Shown: piece after piece, positions 10,350-55,081 of the stretch
Position numbering within the stretch: position 1 is the stretch's first letter
Layout: each line of letters opens with the position of its first letter
Source of the DNA: a virus
Lineage: Duplodnaviria > Heunggongvirae > Uroviricota > Caudoviricetes
DNA length: 64,000 nt
Strand: one strand, 5' to 3'
IMG/VR virus record: IMGVR_UViG_3300037225_000328
Span: 45,793 to 109,792 of that record
Notes under the pieces: generated by a model
Databases searched by the model: none
Told to the model about the DNA's origin: nothing
What the model saw: the letters and a program-made list of their open reading frames with translations, nothing else
Program-made: the position numbers and the translations under genes

Positions 10350-10748
10350 CTAGTCACCAGTATTAGAGTCTATAGGTTCACGGGCTGAATTCTCCCACAT
10401 TTCGTAGCTATAACCTTTTCCTCGAATACTGGCAGTGTTCACACATCCAGTAGTATAACGTCCGTCCTTCAATTTGAATATCATGTGCAAACCACGTACA
10501 ATCATACCTGCATATAGCGTGCCATCCTGATCAATACTACCGGCAAATTCAATTTGCTGCCGAGAAAATGGTCGTTTCCCCGCTCCACTGGCCCAAAGTT
10601 TATCTCCAATAGCAGTAGTAAACTCGTAGACCTGCGCCGTAGTTTCAATGTAAATAGTTGTTTCAGGTGGAAGCTTGGCAGGCTCAATTATACCTTCGGC
10701 TCGTTTTGCTTCCAAATCAGTTGGAGTTGGATATGTTGTAGGCACCAA
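10350..10748 (-). CDS. hypothetical protein
   Basis: 132-aa ORF. Confidence 0.4.
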   Translation of the reverse strand: MVPTTYPTPTDLEAKRAEGIIEPAKLPPETTIYIETTAQVYEFTTAIGDKLWASGAGKRPFSRQQIEFAGSIDQDGTLYAGMIVRGLHMIFKLKDGRYTTGCVNTASIRGKGYSYEMWENSAREPIDSNTGD

Positions 10749-12922: not shown

Positions 12923-14238
12923 TTAAGAGCCTCAATTTCTTCCATTAAATCAATCTTATAGCGTTGAGGCCCTTCTTTTTCATTCTCAGTTCTCAGTTTC
13001 ACTGGCAGTCTCCAAGTAATTCCATATTTAGGGTGGCAACCATGAAGTAATTGTGTTGGCTCTGAAAAACCAGAAAATGAATTATACGCATATGCATCTG
13101 TAGCAACCCACGTTCCATTTATAAGAAGTTCACCATCTAATTCACTTGTGGTTCCAGGTCTATGAAAATGTCCGCAACAATAATAACGAATACGAGTCCC
13201 GCCTTGAATACCCGATAAGGACATAATACGTTGCTGTTTGCGAGTTAAACCGTACCAGGGAATTCCCAAGGAACTTTTCACATCATCACCGTGAAATATA
13301 CAGAAGCCCACCCCGTTTATGTCAAGATTAATAGTCCATGAATCGGGTATAATAAAATTCACATTGTCAATATCTCGACAATAAAGCCGCGCAGTTTCCG
13401 CAATCAAATAATCCCAATTATCATGTGCGCCGTGATAGTCTTTCTTAATTGACCTGCGCCCATGATTACCTGGTACATAAACAATATTTACAGTTTCAAA
13501 ATAAGGTGATAAATCTCTAAACATTAAGGAATGAAGTTGTCCAATTGCTAAACAATTTTTAAAACAATTTCGGAAATAAGAACGTTCTGTATTTCCATGA
13601 ATCTCCCCACTAGTATGATCACCATATGCCAACACTGTAAGCACTGGAAATCGAAATGTTGGAGCTAAGGTCTGTTGAGTCCACTTCAAAACTGTATTTA
13701 CATACTGTTCGGCTCTTGCCATACTAATTTTAAAATCATGTGTCTCTAGTCCACCACATTCAATAGGACGAACAATCTGGTCATGATGTCCATCCGATAA
13801 ATGCATCACAAGATGTTCTTCAATCCGATCCTTCGGTTGCTCACCAATTTTTATCCACGGGGCTTTTGGTAAAGAGGTTAAAGGCTTGACGATGGTTTCC
13901 ATCTCGTCTACAACAGCCTTAAATAATCCATGTGTTTTTGTTATAGCCTTTAACTGGCGACGGGCTGAATTCCGTTCATCTGTTAAATGAACTACATCAG
14001 CCTCTAGTTCCATTATTTTTTCATTAGTTGGATCAAAAACAGGTAGAGGTTTATGTTGCCCACCTTGATGCTTTCGAGGCAATAAATCATCAGCGTCCCT
14101 ATGAACTCTTCCAGTTGCAATATCTGAAATTAAGGAGCGACTTACCCGAAATTTCTTAGCAATCTGAGGTTGCGTCAAAGTTCCTTCCAGCAACAATTCC
14201 TTAATATCACTTACTTTCTTCTGATTCAGTTTCATCAT
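12919..14238 (-). CDS. calcineurin-like metallophosphoesterase with N-terminal HTH
   Basis: Motifs GDHTSGEIHG, VPGNHG, HGDD, GHFH. N-terminal HTH QPQIAKKFRVSRSLISDIATGRV. Confidence 0.55.
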   Translation of the reverse strand: MMKLNQKKVSDIKELLLEGTLTQPQIAKKFRVSRSLISDIATGRVHRDADDLLPRKHQGGQHKPLPVFDPTNEKIMELEADVVHLTDERNSARRQLKAITKTHGLFKAVVDEMETIVKPLTSLPKAPWIKIGEQPKDRIEEHLVMHLSDGHHDQIVRPIECGGLETHDFKISMARAEQYVNTVLKWTQQTLAPTFRFPVLTVLAYGDHTSGEIHGNTERSYFRNCFKNCLAIGQLHSLMFRDLSPYFETVNIVYVPGNHGRRSIKKDYHGAHDNWDYLIAETARLYCRDIDNVNFIIPDSWTINLDINGVGFCIFHGDDVKSSLGIPWYGLTRKQQRIMSLSGIQGGTRIRYYCCGHFHRPGTTSELDGELLINGTWVATDAYAYNSFSGFSEPTQLLHGCHPKYGITWRLPVKLRTENEKEGPQRYKIDLMEEIEALK

Positions 14239-14431
14239 CGTCTCCTGGGGAATCTTGTGTTGTTAATGCCGGCATAGCACAAATACATATACCAAATGCT
14301 AAACATCCCGCAACGATAAATAGGCGCTCCATTAAAGGTGTCGGTCCATTGATTATATAAATAATCCCGCCACCAATAAGCGAGAGGAACATTAAAATAC
14401 CACAAATAAATGCTATGATACCATCAATCAT
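14207..14431 (-). CDS. small membrane protein
   Basis: Two hydrophobic helices. Confidence 0.35.
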   Translation of the reverse strand: MIDGIIAFICGILMFLSLIGGGIIYIINGPTPLMERLFIVAGCLAFGICICAMPALTTQDSPGDDDETESEESK

Positions 14432-14439
14432 AAATTACC

Positions 14440-15510
14440 TTAATGGGAATCTGTCTTTCTTACAGCTAGATAATCAACTGATACCGCCTTGGCAATCAAT
14501 CGTCCGCCCATAATATCTGAATACTCTTCATGAAGCGGTGTAATTACAATACCTTCTCGACCTTTAAATGAAGAATTAACCTCATTTGAATCAACAACAG
14601 TTGTAGGACCATCAACAAGCTGGTCAACAAGTTCCGGGTAAAATGGTCCCACATATAGAACTGGAACTGTTGGAATACAAAACCGCTTACAAGCCGCTTC
14701 TACCTCTCCCCAGTTAATATAGTTACCATCTACTGCCACATCAAATACTCGATAACCACTCTGACCTTCAACTCCATAATCCATAAACTGAATCTTAGAG
14801 CCGTAGATTTCTCCAAATACAATAACATTTGGCCCATAATTTTCTGCAAAATACCAAAGCATCGCTTTCATGTCTTCTGTCAATGGGAGCCAATAAAGTG
14901 TTCGATTGCTATTGGTGTCAAATTCTTTCTTATTCGTTTTATGAGAACCACAAAAGTAATCACCACCAAGAAGCGCAACACGAGAATTCGTCCCGTGAAT
15001 TTTCTCAGTAACTCTTATAGGAGTCCCCGTCTTAAATGCCCCTTTGAATCGAGCATTTCGATAGTTTTCAATATCAGTATAGCAATGAAACCGTGGATCA
15101 CTCTTAACTTGATCCCCAGTTTTATTCCACCAAAGCGGTTCCTTTGGTTCATATTTTACCCCGTGAAATCGATCTGTTAGATCCGTCCCAGCAGGAATAT
15201 CCTGAAGTCCCAGTACAAACCCAAAAGAAGGAACTCCGCGCAAACGGGCGGCTGCCACTCGGCAGTGAGTCTTCCGGCCATCTCCTGGGTAGATTTCTGA
15301 TTTAAGATATTTATCCACGCCCAATTGAGCAGCTATTTCTTCCGGTATCAAAATATCCGGAGGAAAATATGCAACCACATCACCGGGCTTAAATTCACCC
15401 CGACCCACGATAGTTGTATATTCACCAATTGTTGCAATATCAAGACGATCCGCATTAGGATGTGGTTTTACTGCGTCAATCTGTACCGTTATAATACGAA
15501 CGTCACTCAT
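14440..15510 (-). CDS. RNA ligase, Rnl2-like
   Basis: Motif I EKIHGTN (T4 Rnl2-type lysine nucleotidyltransferase); motif IV REGIVITP. Confidence 0.6.
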   Translation of the reverse strand: MSDVRIITVQIDAVKPHPNADRLDIATIGEYTTIVGRGEFKPGDVVAYFPPDILIPEEIAAQLGVDKYLKSEIYPGDGRKTHCRVAAARLRGVPSFGFVLGLQDIPAGTDLTDRFHGVKYEPKEPLWWNKTGDQVKSDPRFHCYTDIENYRNARFKGAFKTGTPIRVTEKIHGTNSRVALLGGDYFCGSHKTNKKEFDTNSNRTLYWLPLTEDMKAMLWYFAENYGPNVIVFGEIYGSKIQFMDYGVEGQSGYRVFDVAVDGNYINWGEVEAACKRFCIPTVPVLYVGPFYPELVDQLVDGPTTVVDSNEVNSSFKGREGIVITPLHEEYSDIMGGRLIAKAVSVDYLAVRKTDSH

Positions 15511-17147
15511 TTTCTCTCCATTAATTCGTCAATTGCTGTCACAAAATACTTTGGTTCCGGCGCTTCAAACAAAACCGATAAATCTAAACTTTGAACCCGA
15601 GAAGCCATTGTGTCCCGATAAGCACGATCTGTTACCATTTTCATAATCAATTGTTCATATTCTTGTTCTGTTGTGGCAACCAATTCACTCAACCCAACTC
15701 TACGGAGCAAATACGATGCCACTCGATTATACCATTGGTTTCCTTCCCAGGTGATAACCGGAATTCCAAGGAATAAAGCATCTACTACACTATTATACCC
15801 TCCCCACGGGTATGAGTCAAGTGAAAAATGTCCATCTTCCAGATTTTTTAGGTGTTGTTGATACGGCTGATTAGGATAATAAACCGCTTGCCCCTTAAAA
15901 ATATCATCCATATCTCGTAGAAAGGGGTATGCACAATTGTATCTATTAACACCGCAGCCAGGGAAGAAATGATAAATAATAGAGATGGGTGAACAAATTT
16001 GCACATCTCGAAGCAGTTTAAGAGTTGGATAATTGTACTTTGTGACGCCCCAAGGTACATTGACAATAACCGGCTCAGAAGCTTTCTGGGGCCGCGTGGG
16101 CACGCATGGCGGCCTTTCTGGGCGACTACCGCTCCCTGGTGCCAGAATTACTTTTTCATAATAATTCATTTCCAACAAATCTAATCGTTCAGCAGATTGT
16201 CCAGTAATAAAGTAATCAATTTGTGCCCCGAATGTCGAGCCAGGATTTCCATTTCCTGTTACTTGAATTGGCGCAATTCTACAATTTGCTAACATTACGG
16301 ACTCAATTGACATTCCTATATCACAAAAATAAACAAGTTGAAAATCATTTTCATAGATTTGAGACACATCCAGTTGTTTATTTTTATATTCAACACGTTT
16401 TACATTTTTAAACAATCTGGTATCAAGACGATTATCTTCTGGCCCCAAGGCTACTAATGTTACAGTGTACTTCCGGGCTAACTCTTCAATCAAACTATAC
16501 ATCGTCTTATAAACCGCATGGCCTTCTACCCAACGATCTGCGATAAACGCAATATTATCTGCTTTAGGTGTATTAATAAACTCTGGCGCATGTCTTTGAA
16601 AACCAGCATTAATCTGGCCTCTAACAATTGGGGACATTATGGGATCAATGTAACTCCCTAAGAAATAATTAGTCGTTGAACGAGACGTTGGTTGATAACG
16701 AACATCCAAAAATGAAAGATGCCACTTACTATTTTCCCATAACAATTCTGTAGTACGTCCTGCGGCCGGTTGTAAATACATATCATACCAAAGTGATGCT
16801 AATTCGGCATCATAGTCAAAAAATTCTCGGGGATTAATTTGAATTTGATTCCGAACAGTATATAAAATCATTTGCTTTGGATATGTCTTAGGTCTAGTGC
16901 GCAAAATCTCCAGTGTGGAGTCTGTCGTTTTAAATGAAGACATTGCAATCACATTTGCCAAAACATGATTCGCCGTTAAAAGTGCAATCGCTTCATCCCG
17001 AGTCAATAGAAAATTAGGATCTGAAAATGTATGAAGAATATTTTGTGCAAGTGTGTTAATCTTAATTGCCGAGGCGGGAGATATTTTATTATAACCCACT
17101 TGGCAATAATAAAAAAGTTCGTCAAATATCTGTTTAGAGGTCAACAT
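15507..17147 (-). CDS. GT41-family (OGT/SPY/HMW1C-like) glycosyltransferase, paralog 1
   Basis: C-terminal GGYNSVVDALFLGIPVITWEGNQWYNRVASYLLRRVGLSELVATTEQEYEQL matches the OGT catalytic-lobe pattern (G.T..ALW.G.P.VT.PGE..ASRVAAS.L..LGL.ELIA...EYE). No TPRs. Confidence 0.55.
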   Translation of the reverse strand: MLTSKQIFDELFYYCQVGYNKISPASAIKINTLAQNILHTFSDPNFLLTRDEAIALLTANHVLANVIAMSSFKTTDSTLEILRTRPKTYPKQMILYTVRNQIQINPREFFDYDAELASLWYDMYLQPAAGRTTELLWENSKWHLSFLDVRYQPTSRSTTNYFLGSYIDPIMSPIVRGQINAGFQRHAPEFINTPKADNIAFIADRWVEGHAVYKTMYSLIEELARKYTVTLVALGPEDNRLDTRLFKNVKRVEYKNKQLDVSQIYENDFQLVYFCDIGMSIESVMLANCRIAPIQVTGNGNPGSTFGAQIDYFITGQSAERLDLLEMNYYEKVILAPGSGSRPERPPCVPTRPQKASEPVIVNVPWGVTKYNYPTLKLLRDVQICSPISIIYHFFPGCGVNRYNCAYPFLRDMDDIFKGQAVYYPNQPYQQHLKNLEDGHFSLDSYPWGGYNSVVDALFLGIPVITWEGNQWYNRVASYLLRRVGLSELVATTEQEYEQLIMKMVTDRAYRDTMASRVQSLDLSVLFEAPEPKYFVTAIDELMERK

Positions 17148-18990
17148 AAAATGGACCTTTATCTCGGGACTTTTGAATTAGGTTATGATTTTCTAAAATA
17201 AAATCAAAGGCTTTAACGAACCACTGAGGTTCATCATTATCACAAAGAAGCGATTTTAACCGATCTACACTAGCAACCTGCGAGCGCGCTTCTTCTAATT
17301 TTTCAGATTTAGTTAATAACTCAACTGCTTTGTCAACATATTCTTCTTGACTCTTACAAACTAAATTGCTAAGTCCTACTCTCCGTAATAAAGCCGAGGA
17401 AGCACGATTATAAAATCGGGTCCCTTCAATTGCCAGGGCCGGGCACCCAACAAAGAAACTATCTACAATAGTATTGTAACCACCAAAGGGCCAGGAGTCC
17501 AATGCAATTGTCCCTTTTTCAAGTTCAATCAAATAGTCTTCATATGGTAACTCAGGTAATAAGACAAACTCATCACCAAACATCTGAGTTAAATCACGGA
17601 TACAAGGTATCATTGAATTATACCGCCCGATAGTCCACGCAGGGAAAAGACGTACCATTGAATTTGGCACTCGGTCTAAAATTTTACGAAGATTACAAAG
17701 CATTGTATAATTTATTTTTGGACTTGTCCATGCACAATTAATAATAGGTCTCTCAAACGATGGATTTCTTCGAGTATAATTAGGAAATACAGGGTGGGCT
17801 CCCAATCCTGGAACAAGAACTAATCTCTCACTATAATTTTCAAGAGCCTTTTCAGCTACTTCTGTTTCTTGTCCACCAATATAATAGTCACACAGCGAAC
17901 CAAATGTACTCGACGGATGCCCGTAACCTGTTACCATAATTGGAGCTAAGCGAAGATTGGCTAAAATTACAGATTCATTTGACATGCCCACATCGGGGAT
18001 ATAGGCTAAATGACAATCCAGTTTTTGAAAAATAGACAAATCCAAATTACCTTTTGAAATATCTCCGGTGCAAATTACATCTTTAAATTGAGTTTTTGCA
18101 AGCGATTCACTATCAACTCCCAAATGAACCAGTGTTAAATCATATTTCTTTCCTAAAGCTTCTAATTGGTGCGCACTACTCTTATAGACCGCACTGGTAG
18201 GATACCAGCGCCCTGTAATAACTGCGATTTTTTTCTTTGATGTTTTTACTGGGGTTTTAAAATATGGGACTCTATTCCGAATTTGTTGATTCAAAACTGT
18301 TTTTATTTCTCGATCTTTTTGAGGAATAGCATACGTACAATCAAAATACGCGGGTGATGTCAATAAAAGAACCATGTTAAATTTATCAGGAATTTTAGAG
18401 TAGTGCCTAGAAATATTATCTGCTAGTAATTTTGTAGGCGAGCCACAACTAGATGCTGAGTATGTAATCCACCACAATGTTGCTAATTTAGAATTCAAAT
18501 CAAAAAATACATCCTGATTAAACATTGGCTGATTTCGGCATGAATACATTACCAAAATCTTAGCAAAATTTCCTGTTTGATGCATGATATGACGCAATAA
18601 TGAATCCGTAGTTTCATAAGAGGAAACAGCAATCAAATTTGCCATCAAATGATTCATTGTTATTAACGTAGGAATATGATTCTCTGGAATATTAAATTCA
18701 GATTGCGAAAAAATAAATAAAATAGCTGCAACAGTATCATCCAATATAGACTGGTCTACTGACCCTATACTTGTATAGCATGAAGACTCAAAATCATGCA
18801 ACATATCAATAATTCGTTTGCAAACTTCGTCAAAATTATTCTGAGAATAAAGTTGCATTAACTCTTTTCCAGTAACATGGTGGTCAAATAATTTCATTGA
18901 ACCCTCTGAATTGTTTGTTGTCTTAAAGTAAACACTGGGCAAGTAATTCCTCTGGCAGTCAATTCTAAACAAATATCCTGAGTACGCCAA
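17134..18990 (-). CDS. GT41-family glycosyltransferase, paralog 2
   Basis: Paralogous to 15507..17147 throughout (MANLIAVSSYETTDS; GGYNTIVDSFFVGCPALAIEGTRFYNRASSALLRRVGLSNLVCKSQEEY). The true start is probably the ATG at 18897, just after the methyltransferase stop. Confidence 0.55.
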   Translation of the reverse strand: MAYSGYLFRIDCQRNYLPSVYFKTTNNSEGSMKLFDHHVTGKELMQLYSQNNFDEVCKRIIDMLHDFESSCYTSIGSVDQSILDDTVAAILFIFSQSEFNIPENHIPTLITMNHLMANLIAVSSYETTDSLLRHIMHQTGNFAKILVMYSCRNQPMFNQDVFFDLNSKLATLWWITYSASSCGSPTKLLADNISRHYSKIPDKFNMVLLLTSPAYFDCTYAIPQKDREIKTVLNQQIRNRVPYFKTPVKTSKKKIAVITGRWYPTSAVYKSSAHQLEALGKKYDLTLVHLGVDSESLAKTQFKDVICTGDISKGNLDLSIFQKLDCHLAYIPDVGMSNESVILANLRLAPIMVTGYGHPSSTFGSLCDYYIGGQETEVAEKALENYSERLVLVPGLGAHPVFPNYTRRNPSFERPIINCAWTSPKINYTMLCNLRKILDRVPNSMVRLFPAWTIGRYNSMIPCIRDLTQMFGDEFVLLPELPYEDYLIELEKGTIALDSWPFGGYNTIVDSFFVGCPALAIEGTRFYNRASSALLRRVGLSNLVCKSQEEYVDKAVELLTKSEKLEEARSQVASVDRLKSLLCDNDEPQWFVKAFDFILENHNLIQKSRDKGPFYVDL

Positions 18991-20123
18991 GGGGTTGTAA
19001 TAACAATCGCATCAGGTTTAATTTGCTCTATATCACCAGCATATCGAATCAACTGCCCGGTGCCGGGAACAAAACGACCAGCTTTATTTTTGTCTGAGTC
19101 AATTACGATAGGAAACTGGTCGCAATTAATACTAAACAAATTTAAAAATGTTGCGCCTTTTCCAGTGCCACCCCAAAACGCCAAGACTGGATATTCTTTT
19201 TGAAGTTGTGCTAAAGCCACTGGAACATTAGTAAGCTGACTTTGCCATTTATCTTCAAAGGCGTCAAATCTTTTCTTTATCACTTTAATGCCAAAATTAG
19301 AAGGTGTTACACAGGCTACTAGAACTTCTCCAGAATAATATGAATCCACACTATTAAGTACATAACTTGATGTACTTAACATTGTAGAGAGACTTCGACA
19401 ATTAAAATTAGACACATGTTCATATAAATAGTCGCCGCACCGCCCTAACTCCAAGGCATGGCTAAAACTAGGAACTTCATAAATACAAACAGGTTTCAAA
19501 TCATATTGTAGACTCCAATAGGCAATCTCAGCAATAAAGTCTCTTGGCTGTTCTAAATGTTCAATAACATGCCGACAAACAATTAAACCCGGTTGATATC
19601 GCTTTATATCTCGTTCAGGAACAAAATAGTCTTGTACTACTTCAAAATCAGTAATCTTCTTTGCTTCAATACCAGGCTCGAAACCCAAAAATTTTTCATC
19701 GGGTGCCCACTTCTTTAATAACGAAAAGAATTGACCATCGCCACAGCCAATATCAATAGCAACTTTATTATGCCATACATCTCGGTATTTAAACGCCAGT
19801 CGCCCAATATCACATAAATGTTCTTGCCATGCTCCGCCATTATTATACATTAAATTGGAATCCTCAGCGTAGGGGATTCTAGTATAATCAAATTGAATAT
19901 TCCACACATGCCCACAAAAGGCACACATTCTAAAATCCATTGGATACCGCAAAGCCTCAATCGCATCAATTTGACTTCGGGGCAAATTTAACGCTGCCAA
20001 TGGTTGTGGCCCGGGGTTAAAAAGAGGGTATGAAGTGGCGTGGCCGCAGGCGATGCATCTCATAATAATCCTCAATACTTTCTGCAATAACTTGTGGCGA
20101 TAAACTTTGCCATTGCTTTCCAT
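18894..20123 (-). CDS. SAM-dependent methyltransferase, sugar C-methyltransferase-like three-domain architecture
   Basis: N-terminal Zn-ribbon (CIACGH...CAFCGHVW). SAM motif I DIGCGDGQFF. C-terminal Methyltransf_14-like domain, as in TylCIII-family deoxysugar 3-C-methyltransferases. Confidence 0.55.
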   Translation of the reverse strand: MESNGKVYRHKLLQKVLRIIMRCIACGHATSYPLFNPGPQPLAALNLPRSQIDAIEALRYPMDFRMCAFCGHVWNIQFDYTRIPYAEDSNLMYNNGGAWQEHLCDIGRLAFKYRDVWHNKVAIDIGCGDGQFFSLLKKWAPDEKFLGFEPGIEAKKITDFEVVQDYFVPERDIKRYQPGLIVCRHVIEHLEQPRDFIAEIAYWSLQYDLKPVCIYEVPSFSHALELGRCGDYLYEHVSNFNCRSLSTMLSTSSYVLNSVDSYYSGEVLVACVTPSNFGIKVIKKRFDAFEDKWQSQLTNVPVALAQLQKEYPVLAFWGGTGKGATFLNLFSINCDQFPIVIDSDKNKAGRFVPGTGQLIRYAGDIEQIKPDAIVITTPWRTQDICLELTARGITCPVFTLRQQTIQRVQ

Positions 20124-20219
20124 CTAAAGAAATACCGCAGTAAACTTCCCGCCCATTTTTAGTTCGATGAATCGAAGCCACAACTCCTAAAGTACCCGTA
20201 GCACAACAACAAACTTTTC

Positions 20220-20474
20220 CTATTTTCGATTCTGGCATATTTCACAACCTTTTAATTTAAGAGTTTGTCCGTGACATTGCATTACAATTCTTGCGCAATG
20301 ACATGCATCATTGTGCAAAATAAATAATTCCCTAGAGAGGCAATCAGGCCACAATGAATAAAAACAAAATGGATTATTTGGATCTCGTTTATAGCCTTCA
20401 ATGTCTCTAGGCGGTTCCCAACTTTCTTTTTCATATAAAATAAAGCCATCAGATATTTGTGGAGACTTTAACAT
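20220..20474 (-). CDS. small Cys-rich (zinc-binding?) protein, paralog of 34511..34996
   Basis: EPPRDIEGYKRDPNNP...LWPDC...DACHCARIVMQC...C.ICQ is shared with 34511..34996. Confidence 0.45.
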   Translation of the reverse strand: MLKSPQISDGFILYEKESWEPPRDIEGYKRDPNNPFCFYSLWPDCLSRELFILHNDACHCARIVMQCHGQTLKLKGCEICQNRK

Positions 20475-21073
20475 GCTCTTGTTTCTGTAAAATTTATTGA
20501 ACTGTAAACAATACCTTGTGGATCTACTTCAATATGAAGATAAATAGTATCTGTCGTTGTGCCGTAAGCTTGAGCTAATAAATCAATTTGTGCCGCGACA
20601 CCTGCCTGGGTATTATAATACCCGATAACTCCAAATTGTGGAATTCTATAAGTCATATCAGAAAGAACAGATCCATCTAATCGACTCGTTATAATTACAC
20701 GAATATTTTCATACCCAGCATAATACGGGACGGACCTAGATTGTTGATGATTAATACAAGGCCCCCAACCACCGCCCCCACCTGAACAATCACCACACCA
20801 ACCTTTTCCTAAAGCTGTTTCAAGTTTGTCAATAATTCCAGTTTTCCATTTATCAATTGTTTCCTCAAAAGTATTCTCCGGGCAAATATGCTTTAATACC
20901 GCTTGAGCCTTTTTAATATCACTAACTGACCAAAGATGTGGATCTGTAACTTCATCTAATTTATCGGCTTTGGGGCATGTCCCAGGGGGGTTTTGACCTT
21001 GCTCATTAATATCATCAATCAATTTATTCCACTGATAAATTTTAAATGGTCCGCTGTCATAATATACACTCAT
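20468..21073 (-). CDS. hypothetical protein
   Basis: 201-aa ORF containing WCGDCSGGGGGWGPC. Confidence 0.4.
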   Translation of the reverse strand: MSVYYDSGPFKIYQWNKLIDDINEQGQNPPGTCPKADKLDEVTDPHLWSVSDIKKAQAVLKHICPENTFEETIDKWKTGIIDKLETALGKGWCGDCSGGGGGWGPCINHQQSRSVPYYAGYENIRVIITSRLDGSVLSDMTYRIPQFGVIGYYNTQAGVAAQIDLLAQAYGTTTDTIYLHIEVDPQGIVYSSINFTETRAC

Positions 21074-21609
21074 AGAAATCTCCCCAGAATTTCATCAAGC
21101 GAAAATGGACGCCATTCACCAAAAAGTCTATACGCATTATCCATACCAACATCAATCGCTCGACGACCTGGCCAGATTCTATTTAAAATTTCTTCCATTG
21201 AACCGTGGCAGTGACCATACAGATGAATTGAGCCATGCTCACGCGCCCTCCATGAAGCAAGTGGATAGTGAGACATGTGAATCTTTTGCTTACCAAACTT
21301 CCGATAAACCATATTATTCATCGACGAAACATGACTTCTCAAAGACGAGGAATCATGATTTCCAGTAACCACATGAATCTTTCGGCACTTAATTCGTTGA
21401 CGATAGTGTCCATACTTAGACGCCTTCCATGCAAAATCACCGAGTATCCATAACTCATCATTTGGCCACACATGTTCATTAATGCCATTAATAATCGCAG
21501 CATCCATCGCTGCAACATCACAACCAAATAAAGCGCTTCGCTCTGGTTGATGTCGTAGAATCCCGGCGTGTCCAAAATGTGTGTCAGCAGTCCAGAAGAT
21601 ATTAGGCAA
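21070..21609 (-). CDS. calcineurin-like metallophosphoesterase
   Basis: ADTHFGH, ILGDFA, VVTGNHD motifs. Confidence 0.6.
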   Translation of the reverse strand: MPNIFWTADTHFGHAGILRHQPERSALFGCDVAAMDAAIINGINEHVWPNDELWILGDFAWKASKYGHYRQRIKCRKIHVVTGNHDSSSLRSHVSSMNNMVYRKFGKQKIHMSHYPLASWRAREHGSIHLYGHCHGSMEEILNRIWPGRRAIDVGMDNAYRLFGEWRPFSLDEILGRFL

Positions 21610-21847
21610 GTTCAGCTAACTCCTTCTGTAACTGTGCAATCAGTTCCGTCAATTCAGCCTTCTTTGCTTCTCGTGCCTCCGTATACAAGCGTACTGCTTC
21701 ATCCGCAGCCGCCGTAAGTTCCTTACTCAAACGCCGAGCCGCCTTAGCCGTCAGCACAAAGGCATCAAAGGAAAAACTATCAGGATCGGTAATAACCACA
21801 TACATCTTACCATCCGTCAAACTCTCAAAAACACTAGCCTGTACCAT
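21602..21847 (-). CDS. hypothetical small helical protein
   Basis: Strong SD GAGGAG at plus 21856-21861 and a consensus promoter upstream. Confidence 0.45.
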   Translation of the reverse strand: MVQASVFESLTDGKMYVVITDPDSFSFDAFVLTAKAARRLSKELTAAADEAVRLYTEAREAKKAELTELIAQLQKELAELA

Positions 21848-21884
21848 TGTTCAATCTCCTCGTTAAAAAAGTTACCACTATTAC

Positions 21885-21912
21885 ATTATACCATCTCAAA
21901 CGGCTAAGTCAA
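21885..21912 (-). promoter_or_regulatory. sigma70-consensus promoter TTGACT-N16-TGgTATAAT
   Basis: Minus strand reads ctcTTGACTtagccgtttgagaTGgTATAATgtaa. The -35 lies at plus 21907-21912 and the -10 at plus 21885-21890, with a 16-nt spacer and an extended TG. Confidence 0.6.
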
Positions 21913-22392
21913 GAGATTTTTTCTTGATTTTATTTCTTCATCAGTAGGTTGTGAAGTATTTTGATCTAAATATTCGGCTGCCTTTCTTAAAAGCGTTGAA
22001 TTATCTTGAAATTGTCCTAATCCAAAATTACATCGACCACACAAAAGTCCGCGAACTTTTTTAGTTAAATGATCATGATCAACAAGAAAATTAGTATTAT
22101 ATTTACCCAACGGTAATTTGCTGCCACAAATAGCACAAACTCCATTTTGCTTTTTAAGCATAATATTATATTCTTGTAAAGTGGTATCGAAATTCTTTTT
22201 TAATTCTCTGTTACGGCCAATATCTGGATTTTCTTTGTTATACTTTTTAACACGTTGTTTTATTTTTTCCTTATGTCGTTGATAATGTTCTGCTTTTTGA
22301 ATTTTTAAACATGTTTTACAATATACATTCCTATAATCTCTATTAGAGTCTGTCAATAAAATTCCACATCTGGCACAGCCTTTTTCTTTCAT
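21904..22392 (-). CDS. HNH endonuclease, T4 endonuclease VII-like (second copy)
   Basis: CAICGSK...VDHDHLTKKVRGLLCGRCNFGLGQF. Confidence 0.65.
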   Translation of the reverse strand: MKEKGCARCGILLTDSNRDYRNVYCKTCLKIQKAEHYQRHKEKIKQRVKKYNKENPDIGRNRELKKNFDTTLQEYNIMLKKQNGVCAICGSKLPLGKYNTNFLVDHDHLTKKVRGLLCGRCNFGLGQFQDNSTLLRKAAEYLDQNTSQPTDEEIKSRKNLLT

Positions 22393-23564
22393 TGATATCC
22401 CCGTAACCAGTGTTCATCCGGTTTATCATGAAGTTCATACCAACCTTTCCCGTATAAATCTTGTAGTCGCTCAAAGTATGTTTGATATTGCCATTTTACA
22501 TTTTCCATTGAATAGAGTTTCACAGCCCTGTCGTGAGTATACTGTCTATCGAGTAATGGTACATTCCGCGCTGCATGGCAAAATTCATTCAGCGTGTGAC
22601 AACGAAATCCAGTGCGGCCATGTTCAACAGTTTCAGTAAAAGCCCCAAAATCTGTTGTGATAGCCGGCGTCCCGGCCATTTGTGATTCCACTGCGACCGC
22701 CCCGAAGGGCTCGATATATATGGTACTAATAAATGTACCTATAGCATTCTGATACAATTCGGCGCGTTTATTACCAGTGGCAAAACCTACATATTCTAAA
22801 TTATCACCTTCATAAACTGCACCGTCAGCACAGAAAATCTTATTCCCTTCAACCTTAGTGCAACCCTGTCCTGCAAGCTTCAATTTGACTCCGAGATTCT
22901 TGCAAGTTTCAACTGCGATGTGAATTCCTTTTCTCCGGATAAGTCGGCCAAGATATAGGTAATAATCTCCTTTTTTAAGTTGGAGAGGATAATCATCTGG
23001 ATTCAGATAATTAGGAATTACTGCATCATAGAGATGGCCATCAGGGTCATAACCACCTTGCGCACCCCATATCTTGTGCATATGAGAATAAGACTCAAAC
23101 ACACGATACTTAGTAAAAGTTCCATTATAACCAATGCCGTATTCAACAGCCATAAGTTCAGGAAGAGCATCTGCTACCGGCTTGCCAATTGTTCCGTTCA
23201 TTATACACAAGAAGTCCCCTGGCTTACAACGGCGCTTAATCGCTGCACTAGCGCGGGCATTCATCAGCTTCCAGTATTCAGCATTTCCAGACCAATCGAC
23301 TTCGTATAAGGCGTCGGGATTGTATTTACCAAAGTAACTTTCTTGTTCATTCTTTGACAAAATTTGAACGTGTTCGTCACATTCAGGGTTACTCCCTTCA
23401 ACTCCATAGTGAAATACCGTGTGGCCTAGAGATTTCATCATAGCACAAAAATGAAAAATCTTCATCGTGAAGGCGCACGCAGAGTGACTCATATTTGTGA
23501 CAGTGTGTGGTAGCGCAGGCACGTGAAATCTAAATGACTTTATCATGTATAACTCCTTCTTCAA
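22389..23564 (-). CDS. GT-B glycosyltransferase (GT4/GT1-like)
   Basis: EX7E-type motif EPFGAVAVESQMAGTPAITTDFGAFTETVEHGRTGF. Confidence 0.6.
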   Translation of the reverse strand: MKKELYMIKSFRFHVPALPHTVTNMSHSACAFTMKIFHFCAMMKSLGHTVFHYGVEGSNPECDEHVQILSKNEQESYFGKYNPDALYEVDWSGNAEYWKLMNARASAAIKRRCKPGDFLCIMNGTIGKPVADALPELMAVEYGIGYNGTFTKYRVFESYSHMHKIWGAQGGYDPDGHLYDAVIPNYLNPDDYPLQLKKGDYYLYLGRLIRRKGIHIAVETCKNLGVKLKLAGQGCTKVEGNKIFCADGAVYEGDNLEYVGFATGNKRAELYQNAIGTFISTIYIEPFGAVAVESQMAGTPAITTDFGAFTETVEHGRTGFRCHTLNEFCHAARNVPLLDRQYTHDRAVKLYSMENVKWQYQTYFERLQDLYGKGWYELHDKPDEHWLRGYQ

Positions 23565-25473
23565 TCTCGCTATAAATGCCCTGGAATTCCCCTAATGTCA
23601 TCTTCTCCAGATCCCTATTTTGCTTTAAAACTTTTAATACTGCCTCATCTGAGGAAAGATGGATGAGGTCTACAATCGTGCAACCCCGGTTCATATCAGC
23701 TCCAATTCTGTGAATTCTATCCTCACTTTGCGTCCGGCTCTCCGCTTCATAGCTATTTGACCAGTACACAGCCATCCGAGACTCTTGAAGATTTAATCCC
23801 ATTCCGCCACTTTTGGGGTGGGCCACAAAGGCTACACGAGAATTATCTAAATCAACCCAATAATCCAGAATATCTTTACCAGCAAGTTGCTTACCTTCAA
23901 CATCAAAAATTGAACCTCCACGACCATCCAATTGACAAACAGCCCACTTATTTTTTATACAAATTTTTGTAATTTTGTCAATTGAGCCAGTAAAGCCTGC
24001 AAAAATTACAATGCGACCTTGCTCTTCGCACTCATCTAGTAAATCAATTAAAGCCGGCTCTTTTGGACAAGCAACTTCCCGAACAATGCGTTCAATGTGA
24101 TCTACTTCCATCGATCCACCACATGTTCCACAGGGCCATGTTACTTTCGTCAAAGTAGCCACATATTCTGGATCTAGGTAATCTGTCATATCATAAACTT
24201 TTTCCTCATCATCAGGATCGATCCAGACTGGTTTTGTTCCATCTTGACAAACGGGGCATTTTGTTTTTCCAACTATCTTCTCACGATATTGGAATCCATC
24301 GCTTAACTCTCTGAGTAATGTCAATCCAACAATTGTACTAGGAGCTGAACCTAAAATTGACTGAGCAACTCGGAGTGTTGTTGGTGTCGGCTCACACTTA
24401 ACAATTCGATATTGTTTTTCAGGGAGATCCAGACAATCTTTCTTATGCTTTACTACAACTAATCCCTTTAAACGCTCATACAGATAATCGCATTCATTAA
24501 CGCTAGATTGAAATTGATGGGCTTCTGATTGCGTAGCCGAAGCAAATTCATCGTGCGGCCCGTCATCATAAAGCTTCCCACACACCGAACACTTAGCTTC
24601 ATCATCCTTCCAACCTATTCGGTGTGGATATACACCAGATAAGCCTTCTTTATTAACAATAAAAGCCAATCGCTTTTCAAAGGCTGAAGGATGTCCTTCT
24701 TTAATCCACCCTGGATATGCAATCTCGGTTTGGCTCCACCAATCTATCGGACTCTTCGGACTAGGTGTGCCGCTCATCAAAATTACATACCCTTCAAACC
24801 CCCAATCCGACCGAATCCCGTCGGCAAGAGCCTGTGCTGCTTGTGATCGCTGTGCATTGGCATTTTTGCAACGACTTGATTCGTCAAATATAACTCCATG
24901 TGGTGCTTGTCCTTCCCAATTCGCCATCCGTTTAACCAAACCCTCGTAAGTCATTACCTCAATATCAAGAGTCTTACTAACACCCCACTTTTTAAATTCT
25001 CGTTCAACTGCCAACAGCCCGCTTTTAGGCCCGATCCAAAACCACCGTGGGCGTTCCGACTTTTCCATGACTTCAATAGCCGATAAAGTTTTACCCGTTC
25101 CCATTTCTGCCGCCCAAATTTGGTAATGATAGGTAAGTCCTAAATTGCTCATATCCTTTTGATGTAGCATTAATGGGCGAGTATATGTATAACATTTAAC
25201 TTCTCTATCAAACCAAGAAAAAGGATTCTCCCCCATTAAAAATTGAAGTTGAATTCGGTTTCTAAGACAATCTTTTACCTTCCATACTTTACGGGGATTC
25301 TCTTCAGCAAAACCAAGCCATTTTGCTCCTTTCATACTTTTAATCTCGTCTTTTAACGCGAATGGGGATTTTAAGAAATAAATATATCCATCCTCATTAA
25401 AATCAAGTTTAGCGGGGGCTTTACGCCGCCCGCTTGAAGTTTCATAAATCAATTTCGTATCAATGATACTCAT
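23530..25473 (-). CDS. SNF2/DEAD-like helicase with Zn-finger inserts
   Basis: Motif I AAEMGTGKT; motif II IFDESSRCKN; motif VI QSEDRIHRIGA. CxxC inserts (KCSVCGK, KCPVCQD, WPCGTCGG). Confidence 0.7.
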   Translation of the reverse strand: MSIIDTKLIYETSSGRRKAPAKLDFNEDGYIYFLKSPFALKDEIKSMKGAKWLGFAEENPRKVWKVKDCLRNRIQLQFLMGENPFSWFDREVKCYTYTRPLMLHQKDMSNLGLTYHYQIWAAEMGTGKTLSAIEVMEKSERPRWFWIGPKSGLLAVEREFKKWGVSKTLDIEVMTYEGLVKRMANWEGQAPHGVIFDESSRCKNANAQRSQAAQALADGIRSDWGFEGYVILMSGTPSPKSPIDWWSQTEIAYPGWIKEGHPSAFEKRLAFIVNKEGLSGVYPHRIGWKDDEAKCSVCGKLYDDGPHDEFASATQSEAHQFQSSVNECDYLYERLKGLVVVKHKKDCLDLPEKQYRIVKCEPTPTTLRVAQSILGSAPSTIVGLTLLRELSDGFQYREKIVGKTKCPVCQDGTKPVWIDPDDEEKVYDMTDYLDPEYVATLTKVTWPCGTCGGSMEVDHIERIVREVACPKEPALIDLLDECEEQGRIVIFAGFTGSIDKITKICIKNKWAVCQLDGRGGSIFDVEGKQLAGKDILDYWVDLDNSRVAFVAHPKSGGMGLNLQESRMAVYWSNSYEAESRTQSEDRIHRIGADMNRGCTIVDLIHLSSDEAVLKVLKQNRDLEKMTLGEFQGIYSEIEEGVIHDKVI

Positions 25474-54454: not shown

Positions 54455-55081
54455 TTAATTTAAGTATTTGTAACCATCTGGAAACTTTCCAGATTTTTTC
54501 CAACGTTGGAATTTGTATTTAAGATTTCCTGGTTTGATACCCAAAGTCTTTTCAGCAAAGCATAGACTCTTATAAACAATATTATTAACCAATACTTTTC
54601 TAGGTTTATGGTATCCTGCTTGTTTTTTAAATTCTAACGAGCGTTTTTTACCTTTATTTGCTTGGCTAATTTTTTGTTTATGCTCTTCAGAAAACTTTTT
54701 TCCGAGATTTGATTTATTGCCTTTTGCAGCAAGACTCATTTTTTGTTTGGTTTCCGTAGAATGTTTTTTGCCTGCCCATGACGGAGGCACTCCACCCCCT
54801 TCATGAATATTATAACCATTAGGTTTTTGTGTATTATATTCTTTAATCTTTTCGATTTCAAGAAATTTAATAAAACTCTCATTTTCGTCTTGTCGAAGAA
54901 TCTCAAATATAAAGTTTTCTTTACCATATTTTTTAATGGCGTTGAAAACTAATATTGAACCATTGCCAGAAAAATGTTGATATTTACGTTTTTCTGGATC
55001 GGTTGTAATCCCAATATAGGATTTATTATTCAACAGATTAGTGAGTTTATACAAGTACCACATAAACTTATTATAAACCAA
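54455..55081 (-). CDS. GIY-YIG homing endonuclease
   Basis: WYLYKLTNLLNNKSYIGITTDPEKRKYQH GIY-YIG core, with a Lys-rich DNA-binding C-terminus (NUMOD-like). Confidence 0.7.
   Translation of the reverse strand: MVYNKFMWYLYKLTNLLNNKSYIGITTDPEKRKYQHFSGNGSILVFNAIKKYGKENFIFEILRQDENESFIKFLEIEKIKEYNTQKPNGYNIHEGGGVPPSWAGKKHSTETKQKMSLAAKGNKSNLGKKFSEEHKQKISQANKGKKRSLEFKKQAGYHKPRKVLVNNIVYKSLCFAEKTLGIKPGNLKYKFQRWKKSGKFPDGYKYLN

Follow-up and report, generated by a model that had tools for sequence, protein, structure and literature searches.

The window, a stretch of 64,000 nucleotides of DNA from a phage of the class Caudoviricetes, carries genes for two glycosyltransferases of family GT41, a methyltransferase (MT), a glycosyltransferase of family GT4 and three collagen-like proteins (Table 1). 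On the ORF map, all the genes named in the earlier note lie on the minus strand. The region 15507-23564 is embedded in a replication/repair module encoding an RNA ligase, an exonuclease, an SNF2 helicase, ParB and PolA. The MT and GT4 genes are not contiguous: three small ORFs and genes for a 201-aa protein, a Metallophos_2 phosphoesterase and an endonuclease VII lie in between. Gene-content searches spanned 74 kb of the ~110-kb genome; because no integrase was seen in these 74 kb, the phage appears to be lytic.

Table 1. Positions and identities of the genes considered in the window.
Feature	Coordinates	Strand	Description
GT41-A	15507..17147	-	HMW1C/NGT-fold glycosyltransferase, 546 aa, paralog of GT41-B
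GT41-B	17134..18897	-	HMW1C/NGT-fold glycosyltransferase, 587 aa, all-alpha domain + GT-B, core glycosyltransferase of the cassette
MT	18894..20063	-	NDP-sugar C-methyltransferase-type, TylC3/MtmC/TcaB9/KijD1 architecture, 389 aa
201-aa protein of no assigned family and Metallophos_2 phosphoesterase (21070-21609)	20468..21609	-	no glycosylation tie
Endonuclease VII-type nuclease	21904..22392	-	Pfam Endonuclease_7 1.3e-21; phrog_2914
GT4	22389..23564	-	retaining GT-B, EX7E motif; Pfam Glycos_transf_1, phrog_3408
GIY-YIG/NUMOD3 homing endonuclease	54455..55081	-	Pfam GIY-YIG and NUMOD3
Two small collagen-like proteins, 168 and 173 aa	55840..56877	-	Pfam Collagen 1e-13 and 1.7e-07
Large collagen-like fibre protein, 1733 aa	56902..62103	-	Pfam Collagen 1.4e-48, 7 stretches

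Profile and structure comparisons uphold the gene family assignments of the earlier note, with refinements. For the two large proteins, membership of GT41 is indicated by Pfam (PF13844, for GT41-A), by sequence matches in the PDB and by Foldseek (TM-scores of about 0.8). GT41-A matches the Pfam family at 1.2e-13, with a weak HMW1C_N match, and finds AaNGT and ApNGT in the PDB at about 1e-19. The GT41-B ORF extends from 17134 to 18990 but its true start is the ATG at 18897, which overlaps the stop codon of the MT gene (ATGA); the resulting protein is 100% identical to P0001. Its best PDB sequence match is ApNGT (3q3e, 1.5e-28), and with its AF2 model (pLDDT 92.7) Foldseek places ApNGT and AaNGT on top (TM 0.78-0.82), OGT and SPY reaching about 0.55. 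Against the NCBIfam NGTferase model it scores 111 bits, for a cutoff of 1000. The two proteins are full-length paralogs (36% identity). In the family alignment, the donor site is kept (K441 and G370 in 31/31 sequences, N521 in 29/31, D525 in 28/31); GT41-A retains the equivalents of K441, N521 and D525, yet carries H371->N and T438->G. The NGT acceptor residues R177, H214 and D215 are not conserved in this alignment. Hence, the phage enzymes differ from NGT in keeping the UDP-sugar site without the residues that read the acceptor, and they are HMW1C/NGT-like rather than OGT-like; of the "OGT/HMW1C-type" catalytic lobe described previously, the HMW1C/NGT side stands and the OGT side does not. 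Because the fold is HMW1C/NGT-like and the acceptor-reading residues are absent, the sequences do not allow a linkage to be deduced, whether to the O of Thr or to the N of Asn.

The MT ORF (18894-20123) matches Pfam Methyltransf_14, _23 and _13. Translation probably starts at Met21, in view of the family alignment and of a pLDDT below 50 for residues 1-18. The family profile matches 4rv9 (3.5e-22) and TcaB9 (8e-19) end to end, and the top 18 Foldseek matches of the AF2 model (pLDDT 90.7) are all sugar C3-methyltransferases. Conserved features include the two CxxC pairs, IDIGCGDG and, within YEHVSNF, an E-H dyad, so that the enzyme keeps the Zn-Cys4 site, SAM motif and dyad of sugar C3-methyltransferases. 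Both approaches agree with the sugar 3-C-methyltransferase architecture already recognised, of the TylC3/TcaB9/KijD1 type. The gene is translationally coupled to GT41-B.

For the GT4 enzyme, Glycos_transf_1 (3.5e-16), phrog_3408 (1.4e-79) and the EX7E motif (residues 285-293) agree with the family first proposed; Met7 is the likely start. The three collagen-like genes are found a short way upstream of the scaffold and major head genes rather than in the tail-fibre region. Their collagen-like nature is confirmed by Pfam, but the share of G-X-T triplets varies among them: Thr occupies position Y in 74% of the 180 triplets of the large protein and in 61% of the 23 G-X-Y triplets of 56356-56877, against just 36% of the 25 triplets of 55840-56346. 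The large protein consists of G-X-T runs interspersed with a globular module that occurs three times, followed by a C-terminal domain.

The distribution of these genes in related phages separates them. The MT and GT41 genes form a cassette of order MT->GT41(->GT41), an MT immediately preceding GT41 in 34/36 viral loci. In a large clade of environmental phages, it occupies a variable site with the SNF2 helicase on one side and the exonuclease on the other; it is found in 26 of 78 exonuclease-anchored replication modules and is missing from 52, where a trypsin-like peptidase, an N6/N4 methyltransferase or Ro60 takes the slot. Among cassette-bearing relatives, the GT41-A paralog is restricted to L008-L011, L028/29 and L041. 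Judged from sequence, MT-GT41 is an independent, mobile accessory cassette. For GT41 and collagen-like genes, whose co-occurrence across phage genomes was proposed earlier for a survey, no linkage was found: no collagen-like ORF lies near any of the 36 viral GT41 loci. Many of the loci compared here are related metagenomic contigs, so that the counts are not phylogenetically independent. Likewise, none of the eight cassette-bearing contigs with 8 kb or more of sequence upstream of the major capsid protein (MCP) gene has a collagen-like gene at the syntenic site. Conversely, neither a GT41 nor an MT homolog occurs within 80 GT4 loci, and a relative (L148/L209) has a collagen-GT4 module without the cassette. 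An 83-kb contig with collagen-like ORFs (L099), which should span the cassette slot, was not among the hits of a GT41 scan that picked up 25 of 26 known positives.

The GT4 gene behaves differently. Here it lies beside the endonuclease VII-type gene, 33 kb from the fibre genes, and does not adjoin them. However, the enzyme is 63-72% identical to GT4s encoded at the head site of clade relatives, where they directly adjoin collagen-like G-X-T genes. L209 belongs to the same clade and has no GT41; its gene order is collagen-collagen-GT4-[53712 homolog]-scaffold-MCP. Comparison with L209, L102, L104, L111 and L119 shows that the homing endonuclease gene of the window occupies the exact GT4 position of the relatives, with the collagen-like genes on one side and the 53712 homolog on the other. 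GT4 is directly adjacent in 7/9 collagen-positive MCP loci, and the two features are associated at informative MCP loci (table 5/1/1/20, p=4e-4). More broadly, a collagen-like ORF is nearby in 39/80 viral GT4 loci, as compared to 0/80 exonuclease-anchored and 0/36 GT41 control loci (p=7e-15); among fully flanked GT4 loci, 27/37 have one and 10/37 have none within 10 kb. After de-replication, the link holds in 15/27 lineages. It is also seen in 3/3 cyanomyophage lineages (ACG-2014f, S-CAM7 and S-CBWM1).

Taken together, these data make us lean, with some reserve, towards a model in which the 8-kb region comprises two independent accessory protein-glycosylation modules along with unrelated genes. 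Its substrates, donors and linkages are inferred from the folds, motifs, gene linkage and distributions described above. In module A (15507-20063), translationally coupled as MT->GT41-B->GT41-A, the MT would tailor a nucleotide-sugar, or the sugar once transferred, and the GT41 enzyme(s) would move a UDP/dTDP-type sugar onto a protein of the surface-filament type. The substrate of sugar C3-methyltransferases is an NDP-4-keto sugar; a search of 74 kb of the ~110-kb genome yielded neither a dehydratase nor a ketoreductase, which counts against this mechanism. In module B (22389-23564), GT4 would glycosylate the collagen-like fibre proteins encoded at 55840-62103. Because its close relatives adjoin collagen-like fibre genes in many phages, GT4 probably glycosylates such fibres, and the 1733-aa protein is its predicted substrate. 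The linkage would most likely be to the O of Thr in the G-X-T repeats, as in Clostridioides difficile, where SgtA, encoded beside bclA3, places beta-O-GlcNAc on Thr of collagen repeats (PMC7157674). Nevertheless, the phage GT4 falls outside the SgtA family, and the acceptor residue and linkage are proposed only by analogy. Also counting against module B are the distance of GT4 from the fibre genes in this genome and the frequent use of lipid- or sugar-linked acceptors by GT4 enzymes. The earlier view that the phage glycosylates its Thr-rich collagen-like fibres would therefore survive through GT4, and not through the GT41 pair.

During infection, the cassette might act on a protein of the virion, on the flagellin of the host or on some other host protein. 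Its closest bacterial homologs are flagellin-MT-GT41 operons in Planctomycetes. Of the nine bacterial loci that best match the phage GT41, six have giant flagellins directly upstream, the top match (L289) being arranged flagellin-flagellin-MT-GT41 and also containing the closest cellular MT; in Sulfurimonas, a Thr/Asp-rich repeat protein is encoded directly upstream of MT-GT41. Enterobacterial flagellin glycosylation islands are typified by GT41+MTase fusions (PMC4875605). In gene content, the cassette thus resembles bacterial flagellin-glycosylation genes. It may then be imagined that the cassette modifies flagellin or another host protein, for superinfection exclusion, host takeover or counter-defence, with no virion target. 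The position among early/replication genes, in a slot otherwise occupied by a trypsin-like peptidase, is in line with this idea, as is the fact that neither a phage flagellin-like protein nor a structural feature co-varying with the cassette was found when looked for. We nonetheless consider it unlikely, since no PADLOC model matches the cassette, where a gene sits in a phage genome says little about its target, and the papers searched describe no phage that glycosylates the flagellin of its host.

A single pathway, in which the GT41s would start O-glycosylation at Thr of the G-X-T fibres, the MT would supply a C-methyl sugar and GT4 would extend the glycan, appears quite unlikely. All its components do occur together in this genome, GT41-subfamily relatives show linkage to filament proteins rich in Thr/Ser (flagellins, and the repeat protein of Sulfurimonas), and Actinobacillus has an NGT + GT4 pairing. 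Yet every distribution described above for the cassette, the GT4 loci, L148/L209 and L099 goes against it. The idea of one cluster of four enzymes does not hold, as the genes are non-contiguous and the cassette and GT4 distribute independently; a GT41-based fibre pathway is likewise disfavoured by the absence of collagen-like genes from the 36 GT41 loci and from the syntenic site of eight cassette-bearing relatives.

Hypermodification of phage DNA bases against restriction by the GT41s and/or GT4, as in T4, RB69, DLP3 and TET-linked systems, is very improbable, although the genes sit in the replication module beside SNF2 helicase, nuclease and ParB genes. GT4-fold enzymes of other phages glycosylate 5-hydroxy- or 5-hydroxymethyl-cytosine DNA, and RL38J1 gp151 shares with the GT4 of the window its top structural match, 7fg9 (PMC13326640). 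Phages also have ParB-dependent thymidine dioxygenases (PMC13229309). However, known viral DNA glycosyltransferase families (GT-A/JGT-like, T4 beta-GT-like) do not include GT41 (bioRxiv 10.1101/2023.12.21.572611). The GT4 matches no RB69-, DLP3- or RL38J1-type phage, even at E<=10, and the conserved proteins of no assigned family beside ParB2 have no dioxygenase signature. A thymidylate-synthase-like hydroxylase, dCTPase, dNMP kinase, C5-MTase or 5mYOX/TET was not found in 74 kb of the ~110-kb genome, which thus gave no support for DNA glycosylation, and the cellular GT41 relatives adjoin flagellins while the GT4 relatives adjoin collagen-like genes.

Host-envelope remodelling is the usual annotation for phage glycosyltransferases of fibre regions. 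That GT4, and perhaps the cassette too, would remodel LPS or another envelope glycan is in keeping with the PHROG category of phrog_3408 ('moron/auxiliary metabolic'), with weak NCBIfam matches of GT4 to glycan-assembly enzymes, and with pelagiphage and actinophage studies reading fibre-region glycosyltransferases as host-surface or DNA modifiers (PMC7029224, PMC10202952), but is hardly credible given that GT4 adjoins, specifically and often immediately, same-strand collagen-like ORFs in the lineages counted above, that it comes without genes for a flippase, a polymerase or a lipid carrier and that the phage is apparently lytic.

As for the unrelated genes of the two-module model, the phosphoesterase is also found in cassette-negative relatives, in some of which the 201-aa protein is located elsewhere. 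The endonuclease VII-type gene overlaps the 3' end of GT4 and may be a mobile nuclease. As a separate observation, PADLOC returns a REase_II-like match for this gene.

The glycosyltransferases of this genome fall into two modules. In one, there is a GT4 enzyme whose orthologs are linked with collagen-like fibre genes. In the other, a methyltransferase (MT) precedes two GT41 paralogs, GT41-B and then GT41-A. The earlier note had treated these enzymes as one cluster, which would O-glycosylate the Thr-rich collagen-like fibres. All of its genes were found again, but they do not form an uninterrupted cluster and are surrounded by replication genes. The window derives from a novel phage; Megablast of the region against 50,697 phage records gave no nucleotide match.

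Positions and features of the genes discussed (window coordinates)
Feature	Position	Strand	Remarks
Replication/repair module	150-29626	minus	DNA ligase, sigma-like factor, PolA, two ParB-like proteins, exonuclease, RNA ligase, SNF2 helicase, HNH/EndoVII/GIY-YIG nucleases
HNH/AP2 nuclease genes	150-638, 9791-10315, 33570-34082		
EndoVII genes	5502-6128, 21904-22392		
GT41-A	15507-17147	minus	inside replication/repair module
GT41-B	17134-18897	minus	starts at the ATG at 18897 (587 aa); same sequence as database protein P0001
MT, three-domain	18894-20063	minus	likely start Met21 (389 aa)
Between MT and GT4			three small ORFs, a 201-aa unknown, a phosphoesterase, endonuclease VII (21904-22392)
GT4	22389-23564	minus	inside replication/repair module; overlaps EndoVII-type nuclease gene
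Tape measure	43803-47726		structural module
Tail-tube-position protein	49025-49801		258 aa
Major head protein	51340-52794		structural module
Scaffold	52844-53698		structural module
GIY-YIG homing endonuclease	54455-55081		with a 172-aa gene, separates collagen-like genes from scaffold/head genes
Three collagen-like genes	55840-62103		just upstream of scaffold and head genes

The GT4 enzyme matches PF00534 (3.5e-16) and carries an EX7E motif, E285-x7-E293, invariant in the family. Its closest PDB entry is 7fg9, a cyanobacterial alpha-1,2-glucosyltransferase (1.5e-44), and, among solved structures, glucosylsucrose synthase and pteridine glucosyltransferases are the nearest to it. Alignment searches retrieved at least 395 viral relatives in IMG/VR, the best 80 loci of which were analysed. 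A locus was considered collagen-linked when a collagen-like ORF with 10 or more triplets lay on the same strand within 10 kb of the GT4 gene. By this definition, 39/80 of these best loci are collagen-linked, often with only 12-40 bp between the two genes, as compared with 0/80 and 0/36 in control sets (Fisher p~7e-15). The link is found at 27 of the 37 fully flanked loci, 21 of the 37 having the collagen-like gene within 3 kb, and it persists after de-replication (15/27 clusters at 70% identity). Neither GT41 nor MT occurs in any of the 80 GT4 loci; the four enzymes do not make up one conserved cluster.

In the window, 33 kb separate the GT4 gene from the fibre genes; adjacency is found in the loci of its orthologs. 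Head regions of 80 related contigs were fetched with a 14-sequence alignment of the major head protein (MCP), a single-sequence search having reached 3 loci and a 42-sequence alignment being too divergent for pattern search. GT4 abuts a collagen-like gene in 7 of the 9 collagen-positive MCP loci. Where at least 6 kb upstream of MCP was available, the 2x2 table of GT4 and collagen-like genes reads 5/1/1/20 (p=4e-4). In contig 3300041955_001975, a relative that has collagen-like genes (locus L209) and is devoid of the MT-GT41 cassette (locus L148), two collagen-like genes and GT4 follow each other between the counterparts of the window genes at 63068 and 53712, before the scaffold and MCP genes. 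The window displays exactly this order, save that the GIY-YIG endonuclease takes the place of GT4. Moreover, the window GT4 is 63-72% identical to these head-site GT4s and only 32-34% identical to a second subfamily encoded after PolA. From this identity and the synteny with L209, it follows that the window GT4 is the ortholog of the collagen-adjacent enzyme and was displaced in this genome.

The association extends to cultured phages. Searching sequenced phages with GT4 by tblastn gave matches in Synechococcus cyanomyophages and in a few fragments of gut phages, and in no others. In 3/3 cyanophage lineages, the GT4 homologue and large collagen-like proteins whose triplets are Thr-rich are encoded 0-2 genes apart, in the baseplate/fibre module, and in two of them a 2OG-Fe(II) oxygenase is also nearby. 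In ACG-2014f (NC_047713.1, 13861-19337; L206) and S-CAM7 (NC_031927.1, 12914-20410; L208), the collagen-like gene(s), GT4 and the oxygenase form a tight group. This oxygenase, annotated PiuC and prolyl-hydroxylase-like, recalls the hydroxylation and glycosylation of collagen; such oxygenases are rare in the rest of the GT4 family (5/80 loci).

Concerning the fibres, the large protein of the window contains 180 G-X-Y triplets, of which 74% have Thr as residue Y. Its gene (56902-62103, 1733 aa) is built from three near-identical units of ~400 aa, each consisting of a collagen run and a globular module of ~180 aa for which no match was found in the PDB. Its GC content is 0.53-0.55, as against ~0.39 for the genome, which may come in part from Gly/Thr/Pro/Ala codons; recent acquisition or internal duplication of the gene is another possible source.

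The link to fibres does not extend to the GT41 enzymes: no collagen-like ORF was found in the 36 GT41 loci, in 80 loci anchored on the exonuclease or, among cassette-bearing contigs with at least 8 kb upstream of MCP, in that upstream region (0/8). Of the 26 cassette-positive contigs known independently from the exonuclease anchor, 25 were also detected by a GT41 pattern scan. The 83-kb collagen-positive contig L099, where the scan detected nothing, is therefore probably truly without GT41. An apparent association of GT4 with MT-GT41 in the clade (4/12 vs 1/30, p=0.018) was set aside, since the GT4s concerned belong to the subfamily found after PolA and the contigs are closely related. Thus, the comparative data back the glycosylation of collagen-like fibres but assign it to GT4 and not to the GT41 enzymes.

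A precedent is known in bacteria. In C. difficile, SgtA, a GT-A/WcaA-like enzyme with TPRs encoded next to bclA3, adds beta-O-GlcNAc to Thr residues of collagen repeats (PMC7157674). As in this system, and as for Bacillus BclA, the phage glycosyltransferase gene adjoins a Thr-rich G-X-T gene, here in the relatives of the window and in cyanomyophages. The enzymes nevertheless belong to different families, the phage GT4 being a retaining GT-B enzyme with an EX7E motif and no homology to SgtA. Furthermore, the predicted phage substrate, with its putative glycan, is a virion fibre instead of a spore coat protein. Another comparison may be made with mycobacteriophages, whose glycosyltransferases, as Freeman and colleagues are said to have described in 2023, act with methyltransferases to modify the phage's own virion proteins, at the C-termini of capsid and tail-tube subunits (cited in PMC12619734). 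Phage-encoded glycosyltransferases that may modify virion proteins, and a methyltransferase, occur here as well; however, a collagen-like fibre is predicted as the target, and other glycosyltransferase families are involved.

The MT-GT41 cassette has a distinct distribution. Homologues of GT41-B number in the hundreds, many on phage-sized contigs; tblastn of GT41-B against the 50,697 records retrieved no sequenced phage encoding it. In the viral loci fetched with the GT41 alignment, MT is directly upstream of GT41 in 34/36 cases. The position of the cassette is constant: primase, ParB2, two conserved unknowns and SNF2 come first, then, after a variable stretch, MT, GT41, optionally GT41-A and the RNA ligase, followed by the exonuclease, ParB1 and PolA. 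The GT41-A paralog is found in only part of the cassette-bearing phages. Using the exonuclease as an anchor, the replication module was sampled independently of GT41; 26 loci have the cassette and 52 do not. In the latter, the slot between SNF2 and the exonuclease is short. A trypsin-like peptidase is its usual occupant, and an N6/N4 DNA methylase or Ro60/TROVE is found there in some cases. MT-GT41 is an independent accessory module. The slot itself (equivalent to window 14238-23530; L126-L205) is an accessory hot spot, occupied by MT-GT41 in about a third of members; in cassette-free slots the peptidase has ~330 aa, and one Ro60/TROVE case adjoins the RNA ligase. In a related phage contig, that of the database protein P0002, a radical-SAM/SPASM protein (~270-300 aa) is encoded two genes downstream of GT41.

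MT has the three-domain build of NDP-hexose C-methyltransferases (TylC3/MtmC, TcaB9, KijD1): a Cys4 zinc domain at the N-terminus, a class-I SAM domain and, at the C-terminus, a domain that binds nucleotide sugars. Invariant in the family are C23/C26/C67/C70, which make up two CxxC pairs, as well as the SAM motif IDIGCGDG and a C-terminal Rossmann-like motif, WGGTGKG. The invariant E235-H236 pair in YEHVSNF aligns with 'HEH' of 4rv9 (MtmC) and 'DEH' of TcaB9 in the catalytic region, the numbering of the TcaB9 dyad (E224/H225) being taken from PDB mutant titles. Profile comparison with the PDB retrieves sugar 3-C-methyltransferases (4rv9, TcaB9, KijD1) aligned end to end (3.5e-22 to 1e-15), and the 18 best Foldseek matches of the MT model (pLDDT 90.7) are all MtmC/KijD1/TcaB9. 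These data agree with the deoxysugar 3-C-methyltransferase type originally suggested from the domain architecture. No 4,6-dehydratase or ketoreductase for an NDP-4-keto sugar was found in the window, in the 10-kb flank beside it (L004) or beside the cassette in phage and bacterial loci. This sugar may possibly be supplied by the host. As to the gene limits, the longest ORF (18894-20123, 409 aa) is over-extended, the start at Met21 agreeing with the family alignment; the public gene call, P0121 (368 aa), starts past the first CxxC pair and truncates the zinc domain.

GT41-A and GT41-B are full-length paralogs (36% identity). Sequence searches keep both in family GT41, as first proposed, with HMW1C-like N-glycosyltransferases (NGTs) as the best relatives of solved structure (ApNGT, 1.5e-28 over residues 129-589). 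The AF2 model of GT41-B (pLDDT 92.7) superposes in Foldseek on ApNGT and AaNGT over ~610-640 columns, all-alpha domain included, with TM values of 0.78-0.82. GT41-A gives a weak Pfam match to HMW1C_N, and no TPRs were matched by Pfam in either protein, the N-terminal TPR superhelix by which OGT/SPINDLY-type enzymes present Ser/Thr substrates being missing. Hence, of the OGT/HMW1C-type catalytic lobe without TPRs recognized by the earlier note, the HMW1C side holds; resemblance to OGT is limited to the C-lobe by sequence, and OGT, SPY and XcOGT reach a TM of only ~0.55 on the GT41-B model.

For the residue check, an ApNGT fragment was aligned to a profile of 31 phage and cellular family members, a sequence-profile comparison rather than a structural superposition. 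Among the residues of the UDP-sugar site of ApNGT (G370/H371, T438, K441, N521 and D525, some of them named in PMC10507012), conservation is 31/31 for K441 and G370, 29/31 for H371 and N521 and 28/31 for D525; in GT41-A, H371 is changed to N and T438 to G. The acceptor side is different. In AaNGT, Arg177, His214 and Asp215 of the all-alpha domain read the N-X-S/T acceptor, and the R177A and D215A variants are inactive (PMC10507012). In the 31-member profile, R177 lies in an insertion without counterpart, D215 is Pro in 22/31, H214 is Ala, Thr or Ser, and Gln469 is Arg in 27/31. Because the donor site is kept and the acceptor residues are altered, GT41-A and GT41-B are NGT-fold enzymes with a different acceptor pocket, and neither N- nor O-linkage can be deduced. 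The sole NCBIfam match is the NGT equivalog NF049992, with scores of 89 and 111 bits against a cutoff of 1000.

Thus, the phage enzymes share with HMW1C-like NGTs the all-alpha and GT-B folds, the conserved UDP-binding residues and their only NCBIfam match, but differ by absent or replaced acceptor-reading residues and by a score far under the equivalog cutoff. NGTs, which transfer hexose to Asn in the N-X-S/T sequons of an adhesin, are known to act on adhesins or other large filament proteins of the cell surface. Unlike the situation with those NGTs, two-partner-secretion adhesin genes do not accompany the phage GT41, which instead has a sugar C-methyltransferase as its partner. The collagen-like fibre shows no enrichment in N-X-S/T sequons (10 observed vs 14.6 expected). 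The tail-tube-like protein is enriched in them (z=3.4; 9 observed vs 3.6 expected), and all lie within its first ~90 residues, a region generally Asn/Thr-rich in its homologues. This cluster was rejected as a signal of a GT41 target because counts in the homologues ignore the cassette (0-4 in GT41-positive phages, 1 in a GT41-negative one).

Bacterial relatives offer a clue to the origin of the cassette. Among bacteria, it is mostly Planctomycetota, Pseudanabaena-type cyanobacteria and Verrucomicrobiota that encode this GT41 subfamily. Only 9/80 bacterial loci have MT beside GT41, and flagellin adjoins the glycosyltransferase in 7/80. Giant flagellins (900-1,100 aa; Pfam Flagellin_N and Flagellin_C) are directly upstream in 6 of the 9 bacterial loci closest to the phage GT41. 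The best match, L289 from Pirellulales, reads flagellin-flagellin-MT-GT41, and the same contig carries the closest cellular homologue of MT, P0143. In an alphaproteobacterium, flagellin is flanked by five GT41 paralogs and MT. From these neighbourhoods we conclude that the cassette would be a flagellin-glycosylation-type protein-modification module captured by phages. It is separate from the GT4 module. In Enterobacteriaceae, nearly all GT41s of flagellin glycosylation islands carry a methyltransferase domain (PMC4875605). The phage cassette resembles such islands in that its nearest cellular MT and GT41 homologues are directly downstream of giant planctomycete flagellins and also beside an alphaproteobacterial flagellin. 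On another hand, neither the window nor any of the viral loci examined yielded a flagellin-like ORF, and the phage MT is a separate TcaB9-type protein, not a fused generic AdoMet-MTase. In Sulfurimonas hongkongensis (AUPZ01000010.1; L046 6835-9726), a 963-aa Thr/Asp/Gly/Ala-rich repeat protein without Pfam domain lies between a phage-type integrase and MT-GT41, directly upstream of the latter; this protein is a candidate for what the cassette, here on a mobile island, modifies in nature. UvrA, Nramp, cytochrome c peroxidase, DUF3467 and BBP7 porin genes also recur in the bacterial neighbourhoods, which was judged to reflect lineage synteny and not functional partnership. In a 5.2-Mb planctomycete-like genome (L045 6079-11767), a radical-SAM/SPASM protein of ~270-300 aa is encoded directly upstream of MT-GT41-GT41. 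In Oscillatoria salina (L002 6744-11782), two paralogs of the GT41 subfamily flank a Condensation/PapA_C-type acyltransferase, without MT, which suggests that acylation is a different tailoring chemistry on the same scaffold in cyanobacteria.

It may also be envisaged that the glycosyltransferases modify the bases of the phage DNA. GT-B enzymes encoded among replication genes would fit such a role, and some viral DNA glycosyltransferases are GT4-fold, in phages making 5-hydroxycytosine (PMC13326640). However, known viral DNA glycosyltransferases are JGT-like GT-A or T4-betaGT-like GT-B enzymes, whose genes adjoin a C5-methyltransferase and 5mYOX or thymidylate-synthase-like hydroxylases (bioRxiv 10.1101/2023.12.21.572611); GT41 is not among them. 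The T4 alpha/beta-GT, RB69/DLP3 arabinosyltransferase and TET-linked systems, similar to the present one by their GT-B enzymes amid replication genes, some of them GT4-fold, always include a maker of hydroxylated pyrimidine (ThyS-like or 5mYOX). No such maker was found in the 74 kb examined: in the 64 kb and the 10-kb flank, of a genome of ~110 kb, the searches gave no hydroxylase, ThyS-like protein, dCTPase, nucleotide kinase, C5-MTase, 5mYOX/TET or dioxygenase, and the last unscreened large ORF turned out to be a DnaQ-like exonuclease. In addition, GT4 searches at E<=10 find no RB69-, DLP3- or RL38J1-type phage, and the gene linkage observed here is to protein genes (flagellin, collagen-like). 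On the 74 kb covered, DNA modification is therefore unlikely. ParB-dependent thymidine dioxygenases exist (PMC13229309), and a dioxygenase hidden beside ParB2 was considered and rejected: profiles of 27713-28453 and 25470-25967 match nothing in PDB, Pfam or NCBIfam, and both are without an HxD...H triad. A PADLOC scan of the cluster matched only EndoVII, to a nuclease model.

Considering these data together, a dedicated GT4 family (at least 395 IMG/VR loci) would glycosylate the collagen-like fibres of many aquatic phages, including the cultured cyanomyophages ACG-2014f, S-CAM7 and S-CBWM1; separately, one clade would have captured from a planctomycete-like host a flagellin-glycosylation cassette, composed of a sugar C-methyltransferase and NGT-fold GT41, for a new protein target. 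Its functional terms being drawn from folds, motifs and gene linkage, we hold this joint proposal at slightly under even confidence. In the literature searched, neither module was found described in phages. To our knowledge, phage virion glycosylation is known experimentally almost solely from mycobacteriophages. If the proposal is true, glycosylation of fibres would be another of its forms, widely distributed but not recognised until now. Glycosyltransferases encoded in fibre regions of phages are routinely taken as modifiers of DNA or host LPS (PMC7029224, PMC10202952), to which the lineage-spanning link between GT4 and G-X-T genes offers a concrete, testable alternative. Collagen-like phage fibres may be sugar-coated, like bacterial BclA proteins and giant-virus fibrils, and such a coat would matter for how the host is recognised, how stable the fibre is and how well it is shielded from immunity or proteases. 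The cultured cyanophages S-CBWM1 and S-CAM7 make this idea directly testable. As for MT-GT41, an NGT-fold subfamily with a rebuilt acceptor pocket would be of interest for glyco-engineering, and the cassette points to an uncharacterised planctomycete flagellin glycosylation taken over by phages. More generally, glyco-enzymes sharing one phage genome need not belong to one pathway.

Several other features of the genome deserve mention. Protein 63068-63928 has no matching database record. Free-standing nuclease genes, of three families, are unusually many, and several occupy exact sites where relatives hold other genes or nothing, as does the GIY-YIG gene at the ancestral site of GT4. These positions suggest that accessory genes are shuffled by homing endonucleases. 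Two ParB-like proteins are encoded (28661-29626 and 10717-11571), and ParB2 is trailed in every clade member by a conserved 246-aa unknown (27713-28453 in the window). Finally, the RNA ligase (14440-15510) and a PNK-like protein (6910-7344), together with Ro60/TROVE in one relative (L135 5821-7434), suggest that phages of this clade are able to repair RNA.
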